DNA of 64,000 nucleotides. It comes from Glycera tridactyla (Eukaryota). The notes under the pieces are model-generated. The model made no database searches, was not told where the DNA came from, and saw only the letters and a program-made list of their open reading frames with translations. The stretch is from NCBI GenBank assembly GCA_965644265.1, contig OZ286459.1, positions 88,226,001 through 88,290,000 on the forward strand, in the 5' to 3' direction. The translations under genes and the position numbers were made by a program. Position 1 is the stretch's first letter. Each line of letters starts with the position of its first letter. Positions 14,956 through 26,965 of this stretch are shown here, in pieces.

Positions 14956-15030
14956 TGAATTTGAATTTTGAATTTGATAACTTTATTTATACTCTTCAGG
15001 GGAAGGTCGAAGACTATCTCTTTCCCCGGT
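14956..15030 (-). other. LINE 3' terminus: stem-loop, polyadenylation signal and tandem tail
   Basis: GGGGAA/TTCCCC inverted repeat (14999-15004 / 15022-15027), AATAAA on the minus strand at 14982-14987, then ATCAAA-TTCAAAA-TTCAAA-TTCA. CR1/L2 elements end in a stem-loop plus short tandem repeats. Confidence 0.7.
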
Positions 15031-15319
15031 CGAGTACAAAAACACATTTACAAACATGACAATTCAATACATACAACAATATACAGTGAAAATTAAAATG
15101 CAAAATGAAGAATGAAAATAAAGAAAATACAACAACAACATTCAAAAATGCAACAGCTCATTTACAATCAAGTCAAATTCAATGCATAGAGCTATTTACA
15201 ATGAGGTTGAATATGCATAAATGCCAGCTAGATGACCGTGTCAAAGTCCGTTACACAGACAGCGCATACAGGGAGTCCAAAAAGACACATCAAGAAATTG
15301 TATCCGATATCTTACTATA

Positions 15320-24900: not shown

Positions 24901-25332
24901 TGGTGAAGCTAGCCCAGGGGGGTCAACCCTAAGGTCTGACATTGTCACTGAGACTCTCCCAAGTTTGTGTCGACTGCTATAGAGACCGTTTTCCATGTTT
25001 TCGCTACTGTTAGACATTGAGGGATCACCCAGGCCTAGTCTAGTAGCTTTATGAGGGCTCTTAGGGGAATGTGATGAGAGCTTGAAGCAGGGGTTCGCAA
25101 GACGGCGTCCTGGGAAGCAACTTAGTGGAGTACCCCCCCTCTGTTGTGCTGGGTTGCTGCGGCGGTCACCAATGTCAACATTTCCTTTGTCACCCGCAAT
25201 AGAAGATAAAAATGCCTCTGTTTGGCATGGTTTCACCTTATTTGATGAATCTGCATCCATCCCCAGAGTCTCATAAACGTATTCGGTCATCCGTTTTTGG
25301 TCCGGTCCTAGATCTTGTCCCAATTTGCGCAT
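21949..25332 (-). CDS. LINE ORF1 (RNA-binding chaperone-like), 1127 aa
   Basis: Long S/P/T/D-rich disordered N-terminus, heptad-rich coiled coil (~22985-23500), then RRNVLIIEGVE...RAIRIKL...KLKGTEIFINEHLT...YNHVWSDMGRIW (~22600-22985), resembling the RRM+CTD module of L1-type/CR1 ORF1 proteins. Q/N/P-rich tail. Same strand as, and upstream of, ORF2. Confidence 0.87.
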   Translation of the reverse strand: MRKLGQDLGPDQKRMTEYVYETLGMDADSSNKVKPCQTEAFLSSIAGDKGNVDIGDRRSNPAQQRGGTPLSCFPGRRLANPCFKLSSHSPKSPHKATRLGLGDPSMSNSSENMENGLYSSRHKLGRVSVTMSDLRVDPPGLASPSSKAVIDPATPAKTGIAEDAQPSPNTGRISFNEPSIPSLDMTSDTDSSIKHNTCNIEIGACPSQVNHTAADSSANSVACPPQVIPNSANPTPDPDDGVEERGIKKSETLKIPGIKELSPQNALKAVTPVATAASPAPDSYSGHDTTEDSFVINGTQQSELFRKEDKIILKTVEDLKIVSGDNSIVLSDDEDSGEDNEKSSSTIRNTSTHDMSNIPLTSSADIPPKQNVIPAIFTASPTGSPILFSANTPTRRITSSKCKPSPILTPRHKHKPHDTPHTTPRSKRSHSSPSEESNQQEPDSESTKNTESKKTRVASPISQEELANRMDDSNAIMTGLTPSGHPQMNPLSSTPIKHAPDSNSQLAASSLDLSIPCAQRSPTNSEAYDNPSKVEPPSDGDSNGLDIHSGISPPEVVSPLSLPQPPLLGPKNKLNASTSTDFSHLPIKAMQELENSILTKLLGRLPDLIHTAMSNPLDKINVKLGSQSSDTLKLDLELSRMTKRLDTLSQLNNNDLEQIHRELVSARNESDKIHSAASEALTKATDALKITSDMRNDNDEKARANEVQQMKKDIATAKLECERVNSAAKEALTQAKNALKMAEEKSTSNESLSSIKDHNDKLNYLKTELDKLLARMETTEMLERRNVLIIEGVEVNSPPEVLPTVIQMFHDRLGVTLSKEEVESCYFFGPAKTQPPEPRAIRIKLYRTDMKKWIMKQKGKLKGTEIFINEHLTPVNNNIFYLARSARKLKRYNHVWSDMGRIWATRTVDSVPTLLRDSAKLREELQMQREPTNDDQDRHRERPAAVLKNDAYQIQRNQNRFKGARGRQTWNDQCEFQPRMSMPTQGRVAPHTPAMGFATRPPGPVPPQRTQAPPVNQNGSNFTNYNTQSNQNISERLSNLAYQTDQQSTQGFAGNGPLVSNLHQYWNQGPPQNQQRFIPPLLPPTQQPPQPPQPVVQYQVSNNSYPNASGNFIQSEFPNLQHGIRWQ

Positions 25333-26965
25333 ATTTCGATAGAAAAATCCAGAGCTCCGTTGATGTGTGTCCTCTACTCTCGCATGCTCACAATCACATC
25401 AGCGAAGTCTCTAATTACTGAAATTGATATAATTAGTGCCTGGTAGCTTTTCCCTCAGCAAAAAGATATTCTTCTCTGAATCAGATCTTCTGACTATTGA
25501 TTTTCATCACAGCAATATGTTTTAGCACGCGTCTATTAACGATATCAATATTCGAAACGAATGTGCTATTTGATTCATCTTCCTTGACCCGCATGAGGCC
25601 GTTGATCCTGTTATACCCGAAACCGTACTGTGCATATTGTCAACATTTGGAATTATAGACTATTTGATTTGTTGATTCGGAATTCATCTGAGGGGTAGGA
25701 TGAGGCTAGTGGAAACCATTGCAAGTAGGTAATATCACTTGCCGGTTCCGACAGGGGTCGATTTCGGACCTGCTTTTGTTCGTGCTTCTAATGAATGACT
25801 CAGCAAATGTTATCAATTGTGGTATTGTTCGAATATATGAAAATGATACTGAGATTGGTGCTCACATTTTTGCGAGAAGGTAGACGGCTGTGTCTGGAAA
25901 ACGTCTACATGGATAATGTATTGGTGTGGTGAAACTGGTCCACGTTGCTCTCAGTTATTGAACTCTGACCTACATGTGATCCATTTCCGGTTGCCATTGT
26001 TCCTTTGGTCGTCCAAATCAATGATAGATTAGTGACTGGTCTTTTGAACAGCAGTGATCTCTGATACAGAAGCCAATTGAGCTCCGCCATTGTAATTCCA
26101 TGCCCGTTAAAGGACAGAATTGCATGGAAGAGGTTGGGAGATTAGATATTTTTCTTTTGCATTGGGGGAAAATTGGCTCAAGCCAATTCACTAACAGATG
26201 GGGTTCTCTACGTGAATCGGCTACTGGAGTAATACAGAGCTCATTCATGCCTGTCGTCAGATGATTCATTTATGTATGACACATGAAGCTGTGTGCAGGA
26301 TATGGCCTGCCTGAAAATATTAGTCATGAAACCCATTCCAAAGTCGATTGCCAATTGATTAGCTCTTTGGTGATAGGTATCGTGAGACTGTTGACGGAAA
26401 CTACAATTATTCATCTTATTCGGAAAGATTACAAGCAATTGATTACAATCTGTATGTCCAGAAGCCTTCTGGTTCTCACTAGGGGGATGTCATACTCTAC
26501 GGTATTCACAAAGAATATTCCTCAGGGAAACCTAACAAACGATTTTGCTGTTACAATGAAAGTTTGCCGGTGAGTGAGACATATTTTATGGAATCCACGA
26601 GAAGTATATGCTTTACAAGACAGCATCCTTATGAAAAAAGATTCATAACTCAGGTGATGATTGGTCATAATCCCGGTTAGGCGGAGACAGTAGCCTGATG
26701 GTAGCAAATACTGGCAGTGTACGAAGGTCAAAGTACCATTTTTCCTTCATTCCAAGTGTCCACTTCATCTCAGAACAAATGGGCACTGTCGATTGATATG
26801 AGTTTCCGTTGAAGATCCCAACAATCAGAAGTCCTCACAGGTATTTTTCCAGCATTTGGCCTTCTAGTGAAATAGTGATTCAGGGATCAGTATATCAATC
26901 CGGTACTCGCTTTCTATCCATCTTGATGATCAAAGACGAAGCTATTGGATAAGGACGAGAATGTC

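Follow-up and report, generated by a model that had tools for sequence, protein, structure and literature searches.

A probable three-protein LINE in Glycera tridactyla encoding a predicted stand-alone SGNH esterase

The minus strand of a 64,000-nt stretch of Glycera tridactyla DNA (assembly GCA_965644265.1, contig OZ286459.1, positions 88,226,001 to 88,290,000; hereafter the window) contains a retrotransposon with open reading frames (ORFs) for ORF1, a predicted SGNH esterase, and ORF2. The best reading of this locus, and one that we consider likely, is a single near full-length long interspersed nuclear element (LINE) encoding three proteins. Its workings appear to be those of a CR1-group LINE whose ORF1 is probably of type II. 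New are the presence of three ORFs, the free esterase, whose family is unannotated, and the array of hairpins. Counts of copies, repeats, and motifs refer to the 64-kb window, which contains runs of N.

Results

Three intact reading frames on one strand

The ORFs were listed stop-to-stop under the standard code, and starts were placed at the first ATG. Three long minus-strand frames were found (21949-25398, 21048-22154, and 15320-18280, stop-to-stop), and ORF1, the esterase, and ORF2 are the sole long non-repetitive ORFs among the 31 of at least 150 aa in the window. On the minus strand, the order is ORF1, esterase, spacer, ORF2, 3′ untranslated region (UTR), and tail. All three ORFs have start codons and are stop-free, as an initial annotation of the window had stated. 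Together they comprise 7236 coding nt without a stop, for which the chance of zero nonsense substitutions, considering these substitutions alone, is 0.058 if decay is 1% and 0.003 if it is 2%; all three ORFs are therefore probably young. The features of the locus, all on the minus strand, are as follows (basis in brackets).

25333..26100, probable 5′ UTR, upper limit tentative (strand skew to ~26100)
21949..25332, ORF1, 1127 aa, ATG at 25332, stop at 21949 (ORF listing)
ORF1 aa 1-590, S/P-rich low-complexity N-terminus (composition)
ORF1 aa ~590-785, helical coiled coil (model and composition)
ORF1 aa ~784-873, 22983-22714, probable RNA recognition motif (RRM) (Atlas, PF25298, model)
ORF1 aa ~873-915, FP25K-type C-terminal domain (CTD) (Atlas, PF25298)
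ORF1 after the CTD, Q/P/N-rich tail (composition)
21949..21968, overlap of the ORF1 stop and the esterase start, 20 nt, +1 frame (ORF coordinates)
21048..21968, predicted SGNH esterase, 306 aa, ATG at 21968, stop at 21048, start context CAACATGG (Pfam, Atlas, AlphaFold2)
18260..21047, spacer, 2788 nt, no long ORF (ORF listing, Pfam)
20290-20548, 138-nt tandem duplication inside the array, 83-85% identical (self-comparison)
19810..20836, array of 10 hairpin motifs, GCAG-GCYCY-ANNY-RGRGC-AGGC (pattern matches)
19240..19690, old tandem duplication, ~220-nt unit, ~64% identical (self-comparison)
18604..18629, isolated hairpin motif copy, ~350 nt upstream of the ORF2 ATG (pattern and covariance model)
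15320..18259, ORF2, 979 aa, apurinic/apyrimidinic endonuclease (APE) plus reverse transcriptase (RT), ATG at 18259, stop at 15320 (Pfam, catalytic motifs)
14957..15319, 3′ UTR, T-rich, 363 nt, 42% T (composition)
14987..15040, terminal stem-loop of the 3′ UTR (folding versus shuffles)
14982..14987, AATAAA just before the tail (sequence)
14958..14976, 3′ microsatellite tail (CAAATT)n, three CAAA(A)TT units (sequence)

The esterase and its family

The middle ORF starts with A at -3 and G at +4, and the residues S66, G98, N146, D271, and H274 are intact in its product. Pfam yielded weak GDSL matches (E 2e-4), and the Atlas neighbours were SGNH/GDSL proteins. AlphaFold2 prediction with the family alignment gave a model with a pLDDT of 92.6 and a pTM of 0.90. 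A Foldseek search with this model returned 93 matches at E ≤0.001, those listed being SGNH folds, and the best match in a second structure search was the GDSL esterase 7e16 (Z 13.7, rmsd 3.5, 187 aligned residues). The model thus provides solid support for a predicted SGNH hydrolase fold with an intact predicted active site. No transmembrane segment was found in the protein, in which the highest hydropathy over 19 residues was 0.83. The initial annotation had likened the three proteins to gag, pol, and env; the env analogy fails because the esterase has no transmembrane segment and its predicted fold is that of a soluble hydrolase.

A family scan over 1.84 billion representatives, in which only cluster representatives were compared, yielded 78 matches, the best with 31% full-length identity. 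When the query and 39 of the matches were combined into a profile, 77 of the matches fitted it; P0063 (2408 aa), which did not match the profile, was dropped as spurious. By sequence, the esterase falls into a family that is unannotated and comprises 77 clusters, in which the catalytic residues are conserved (S in 56/56, G in 58/62, N in 57/59, D in 33/37, and H in 35/37 covering relatives). Nineteen of the 77 relatives span blocks I to V, and 18 of these are 239-338 aa long. The other, P0003 (784 aa), carries the esterase N-terminally and has no significant similarity to ORF1 or ORF2. P0003 is the sole long true family member, with a 480-aa low-complexity C-terminal extension rich in S, N, H, Y, and T. 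Fifty-eight relatives are partial, several of them ending in unrelated residues mid-domain, like decayed transposon copies or short contigs. When the family profile was compared with PDB, the ZfL2-1 esterase was not among the 19 sequence matches. A word-index search for a close donor of the esterase gave none among 340 candidates, no phage match was found, and no PHROG match was of use.

The esterase seems to be translated from its own ATG. The catalytic serine is preceded by 65 residues in the query and by at most 111 in 57 aligned relatives, and none of the 77 relatives has an N-terminal extension of the size of ORF1. A Met lies within 12 residues of an N-terminal PI[YF]RR-like motif in 21 of the 28 relatives reaching that motif, a count to be read with the caveat that all 78 database entries begin with M, possibly forced by the gene caller, and that many are fragments. 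The sequence MA is found at the start of 9 of the 21 Met-bearing relatives and 2 of the 56 others (Ala background, 5.4%), and this excess fits genuine starts because G is expected at +4 there. Since the relatives lack an ORF1-sized extension and the Met recurs at a homologous place, comparison of these sequences indicates that the esterase is a separate protein with its own start and not a broken fusion. The stand-alone esterase proposed initially is thus upheld by its own frame and ATG, by a family without fusions, and by the predicted SGNH fold. A complex prediction for ORF1 (residues 690-935) with the esterase scored 0.00 with the alignment unused and was counted neither way.

ORF1

The coiled-coil region of ORF1 was modeled as long amphipathic helices with a pLDDT of ~55-83 over model residues 1-110. 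The region of the probable RRM and the CTD is basic (~130 aa, pI 9.8) and has 184 of 256 features in common with clusters of FP-protein C-terminal domains, and a beta-alpha-beta-beta-alpha-beta order appears in the low-confidence model of this domain. We take FP25K-like domains to be L1-type RRM-CTD modules, a link for which a literature search gave no paper, and the segments RRNVLIIEG, PRAIRIKL, and IFINEHLT of ORF1 presumably match such modules. Several results count against this assignment. The Atlas score of the basic domain against the arthropod FP-protein C-terminal-domain clusters was 0.89, under the lead threshold of 0.9; its Pfam match to PF25298 (E 0.0014) was below the cutoff; no Pfam match to Transposase_22 was found; and the pLDDT was under 50 over most residues of the RRM region.

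Searches of Pfam and PDB with the RRM sequence gave no significant match. Three fold searches with the ORF1 model, a single-sequence prediction that is poor over the RRM region, returned generic helical bundles only and speak neither for nor against an RRM. A word-index search with residues 760-940 retrieved none of 638 candidates, and CCHC, PHD, and 2A (NPG) patterns were absent. Taken together, it is probable that ORF1 carries an RRM, and there is moderate support for its resemblance to an L1-type (type II) coiled coil-RRM-CTD protein. The RRM-type ORF1 of the initial annotation is therefore retained in part: the coiled coil and the Atlas and PF25298 comparisons agree with it, but no significant database or fold match does. 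The Pfam check of the two proteins that it had proposed gave a similarly divided outcome, as the esterase gave a weak GDSL match and ORF1 only the PF25298 match below the cutoff.

ORF2 and the 3′ end

ORF2 contains an APE endonuclease (~18148-17516; Exo_endo_phos, E 7e-7) and a reverse transcriptase (~16651-15932; RVT_1, E 3e-35) with its YADD intact and the catalytic motifs in place. Its start has A at -3 and G at +4. A search of ORF2 for RNase H and a zinc knuckle gave no match, and a scan of prokaryotic genomes with an ORF2 pattern gave 41 pattern matches, none of which was confirmed. The motif NKLSLN and a C-terminal IWNAL region presumably point to the L2 branch. On these motifs, without a tree, the L2/Daphne/Crack branch is more likely than CR1 proper. 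The CR1/L2-type label given initially thus agrees with the APE-RT ORF2, the 3′ stem-loop, and the short-repeat tail, with CR1 proper as the less likely part.

The element ends in a short-repeat tail rather than poly(A). Folding over 14960-15060 gave -24 kcal/mol (z -3.48), and 1 of 200 shuffles was equally good. The stem-loop, the AATAAA, and the three tail units confirm the proper 3′ end that had been described. A 3′ stem-loop has a precedent in ORF2p recognition by ZfL2 elements (PMC4176376), and by analogy the stem-loop found here is probably the ORF2p recognition site. Here and below, statements on PMC4176376, PMC3905857, PMC4120745, PMC5408684, PMC13343379, PMC7140322, PMC8557442, and PMC5203782 refer to the available parts of these sources.

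A hairpin array in the spacer

The spacer contains 73 ATG triplets and 24 stop-free segments of at least 48 aa, none with a Pfam match. The 26-nt hairpin motif had 11 matches in the 64 kb, all at 18607-20833, where 0.04 were expected. This accords with the motif positions noticed initially (18606 and 19812-20835) and with the distances then given; between the array edge and the esterase stop are 215 nt. With a covariance model of the 11 motifs, no further strong copy was detected. A degenerate twelfth copy is located at ~20233. The hairpin consists of a 5-bp stem, a tetraloop, a tandem A-G internal loop, and two further pairs. Pairing is fulfilled in 76 of 77 cells on the sense strand and 69 of 77 on the other strand; a U-G pair closes 7 of the 11 copies, which leaves the opposite strand less paired, and the hairpin is therefore assigned to the sense RNA. 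Double-sided changes were found in five cells, equaled by 1 of 500 shuffles.

Sliding-window folding of the spacer revealed no extended structure (best z -2.5). Rfam over 14000-27000 gave three chance-level matches, none on the hairpins, and a scan of prokaryotic genomes with the hairpin pattern gave none. Because the motif lies inside old duplications while the ORFs are intact, the spacer appears to be far older than the insertion. A fourth ORF in the spacer was ruled out, as stops were equal per frame (9, 9, and 10 of ~370 array codons).

Nine of the 11 hairpin copies (18607-20588) are in phase with the esterase; translated in that phase, the motif gives QA[LP]xGAG, with the two compensatory changes at third positions. 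Nine of the 10 spacings between copies are multiples of 3, with a nominal p of 4e-4 that is post hoc and comes from related copies. The shared reading phase could reflect descent from coding sequence. An ATG-started frame of 122 aa (19734-20099, minus strand) contains four motif copies in frame and has no Pfam match.

A single element and its alternatives

The initial annotation had inferred a single element. Complementary halves stand in canonical order, ORF1 and the esterase followed by ORF2. No second RT, ORF1, or esterase remnant was found in the window by tblastn and the esterase profile, and none of 73 stop-free segments of the flanks and spacer matched Pfam at E 0.01. The spacer contains no copy of the element's 3′ end or tail, so the absence of an internal tail noted earlier stands. 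A hairpin motif near each end of the spacer confines any junction to the ~215 nt after the esterase or the ~350 nt before ORF2. Order, intactness, the lack of an internal tail, and the spacer motif hence favor that inference, and the unit may transpose as one. The pairing of a type II ORF1 with a CR1-group ORF2 is already known (PMC4120745, Table 1).

Other observations weigh against this reading. A search for a target-site duplication (TSD) around the element gave only chance-level 6-7-mers. The window holds one copy, with an undefined 5′ end; the end proposed earlier at 25400 is not supported, given the negative TSD search and a strand skew that reaches ~26100. Codon usage correlates less between the esterase and ORF2 (r 0.27) than in the other pairs (0.47 and 0.57), a difference that is not decisive. 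Any link between the esterase relatives, compared as sequences, and LINEs is conjectural. The hairpin covariation traces to some two events among copies that are related, the structure itself comes from the very sequences on which it is scored, and five single hairpins beat shuffles only modestly (z -0.2 to -2.0). The core UGGGA of a termination upstream ribosome-binding site (TURBS) is not near the ORF1-esterase overlap, the nearest being 381 nt upstream. Finally, ORF1-less CR1-group elements can bear repeat subunits of 100-500 bp near the 5′ UTR that resemble this spacer (PMC13343379).

The last point bears on a one-off composite, in which an ORF1-less LINE with such a repeat-rich 5′ UTR, or a 5′-truncated LINE, landed behind the ORF1 and esterase of another young element. 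A composite would suit the proposal that ORF1s are shuffled by cross-insertion (PMC4120745), the higher T content of the spacer compared with ORF1, and the negative TSD search. However, two very young elements would have to have inserted independently, with the same orientation and no more than a few hundred nucleotides apart; the ORF2 of the interrupted element is absent downstream, and the present ORF2 is complete with its ATG. We regard this origin as unlikely, and ORF1 and the esterase would remain coupled by their 20-nt overlap even then. That overlap could be read differently, as the mark of a two-ORF element whose coiled coil-RRM-CTD-esterase fusion was split by a one-base indel or an assembly error, or is joined by a +1 frameshift. 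The esterase frame is indeed open for 62 codons upstream of its ATG, and in Table S1 of PMC3905857 the esterase domain follows a stretch of over 130 residues in 21 of the 24 elements. This is nevertheless highly improbable in view of the relatives, which lack fused N-termini and share the start Met; none of 5307 proteins of 593-2000 aa was scored as a longer fused form by the family profile, a weak search that also missed P0003; and the sole slippery heptamer (22018) shifts by -1, into the wrong frame.

The overlap would also be generated by mere insertion at the end of ORF1, as expected if the locus is one element whose esterase is a passenger, captured recently from another class of transposon or from a gene of the host and playing no part in retrotransposition. 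GDSL/SGNH ORFs have been swapped among rotifer long terminal repeat (LTR) and Penelope-like elements (PMC5408684), the ORF1p of ZfL2-1 is dispensable in HeLa cells (PMC3905857), and the family profile misses the ZfL2-1 esterase in PDB. Against a passenger, the esterase ORF is undisrupted, codes for a complete active site, and begins in a strong start context; even the nearest relatives share only ~31% full-length identity with it, and no close donor was seen. We consider it the least probable of these alternatives.

Discussion

Comparison with known elements

The single three-protein LINE resembles L2, Daphne, Crack, and Kiri elements with a type II (Transposase_22, L1-like) ORF1, as in L2 subgroups 3, 5, 6, and 7 (PMC4120745), in having a coiled coil, a probable RRM, and a CTD before an APE-RT ORF2 and in lacking CCHC and PHD motifs. 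It differs from them in the extra esterase ORF, in the length of ORF1 (1127 aa, with a low-complexity N-terminus of 590 aa), and in the 2.8-kb spacer with a hairpin array. With LINEs that have a type IV (esterase) ORF1, such as ZfL2-1, vertebrate CR1, and RTEX (PMC3905857), it shares a predicted SGNH hydrolase before ORF2, a 3′ stem-loop, and a microsatellite tail. In those elements, however, an esterase domain of ~165 aa lies within ORF1p, usually after a coiled coil and without an RRM (PMC3905857), whereas here a separate 306-aa esterase, for which the sequence comparison did not retrieve the ZfL2-1 structure, stands beside an RRM-type ORF1. Membership in the type IV class was ruled out by the esterase's own frame and ATG and by the absence of fusions in its family. 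The Table S1 row of RTEX-1_BF starts at residue 1 and represents a fragment or a stand-alone protein (PMC3905857).

The closest precedents for a separate esterase differ in element class. The hydrolase ORF of Ngaro is a separate SGNH ORF of a retroelement that has its own structural protein. Likewise, the bdelloid Vesta LTR element has a stand-alone GDSL ORF3, and Athena/Terminon elements also carry a separate SGNH ORF beside their own structural protein (PMC5408684); unlike these, the present element is an APE-type LINE with the esterase between ORF1 and ORF2. L1 elements with a long intergenic region and SART1 are similar in their long spacer with suspected internal entry and in coupled stop-start translation, respectively (PMC5381506; PMC5972666). 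Vertebrate L1 spacers reach ~1 kb and showed no shared structure (PMC5381506; PMC5972666), whereas the spacer here is 2.8 kb long with 11 copies of one hairpin.

The available text of PMC3905857 and PMC4120745 bears out the view, expressed in the initial annotation, that an esterase and an RRM-type ORF1 are treated as alternatives. Schneider et al. (2013) found no Repbase esterase ORF1p with an RRM, with 24 elements in Table S1, and suggested that the combination never arose or that the two are redundant or mutually exclusive (PMC3905857). Metcalfe and Casane (2014) reported esterase ORF1s in only two vertebrate subgroups among 448 elements; Table 1 of that paper has no subgroup with both Tnp22 and an esterase, and its additional files may bear on the point (PMC4120745). 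PMC13343379 and its preprint describe one- or two-ORF structures only in their available parts, and those of PMC7140322, PMC8557442, and PMC5203782 contain nothing on three-ORF forms of this kind. The three-gene esterase architecture was absent from the titles and abstract starts of the literature searched, a coverage to which Repbase, Dfam, Repbase Reports, and subscription papers do not belong.

Proposed mechanism

In the mechanism that we propose, a recently inserted LINE would encode three proteins on one RNA. ORF1p would form an L1-type coiled coil-RRM-CTD multimer that coats the RNA. On finishing ORF1, ribosomes would move ~20 nt back to the esterase ATG and start again there, yielding the esterase at a fixed low ratio to ORF1p. 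Termination-reinitiation suits the esterase because its ATG, in the +1 frame, precedes the end of the ORF1 stop by 20 nt; such coupling is known for SART1 and has been proposed for L1 (PMC5972666). The ZfL2-1 esterase is active and binds liposomes (PMC3905857). By analogy with the proposal for ZfL2-1, the esterase here may be a lipid-binding acyl hydrolase that targets the ribonucleoprotein (RNP) to membranes; having no coiled coil, it would have to join the RNP via ORF1p or the RNA.

ORF2 would be beyond the reach of scanning because 73 ATGs intervene, and its translation would thus need internal entry, splicing, or an internal promoter. A candidate splice acceptor lies ~50 nt before the ORF2 ATG, and long L1 spacers are predicted to hold internal ribosome entry sites (PMC5381506). 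The hairpin array could act as a repeated protein-binding signal on the sense RNA, for ORF2 expression or packaging. Most simply, the hairpins would serve as a series of sites to which ORF1p, the esterase, or a host protein binds, and the Arg-rich PI[YF]RR N-terminus of the esterase is a candidate hairpin binder. ORF2p would then bind the 3′ stem-loop and integrate the element by target-primed reverse transcription.

A broader proposal, which we hold tentatively and as somewhat less than an even chance, is that this copy belongs to a lineage of tricistronic LINEs that is old, widespread, and undescribed and in which the 77 esterase clusters are the middle genes. In such a lineage, ORF1p would package the RNA, the translationally coupled esterase would be loaded via the hairpins for association with membranes or vesicles, ORF2 would be made by internal entry, and the RRM and the esterase would not be interchangeable. 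If this is true, the two modules have different jobs; retention of both, as two proteins, in an intact element speaks for a function of the esterase beyond RNA packaging. The role of LINE esterases would also become testable, since the enzyme could be removed without touching RNP assembly, unlike in ZfL2-1. The unannotated SGNH family and the compact repeated RNA motif offer a handle on the translation of an ORF2 behind a 2.8-kb spacer. This value falls if the three-gene order proves to be a one-off composite or has already been catalogued in Repbase or Dfam.

Neighboring sequences

A 78-nt minisatellite at 26990-29623 consists of four blocks with 94-96% matches and has an open frame on the plus strand. 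Further tandem arrays have units of 83 nt (29931-30327), 56 nt (34961-35359), and 61-64 nt (57762-58743). Two families of short dispersed repeats were also observed, one at 1161-1388, 4425-4708, 7033-7237, and 61195-61757, and the other at 4253-4381, 12924-13061, 13608-13688, 48670-48801, 52875-53055, and 54624-54712. The copies in both families are 66-95% identical, and by self-BLAST both are unrelated to the LINE.

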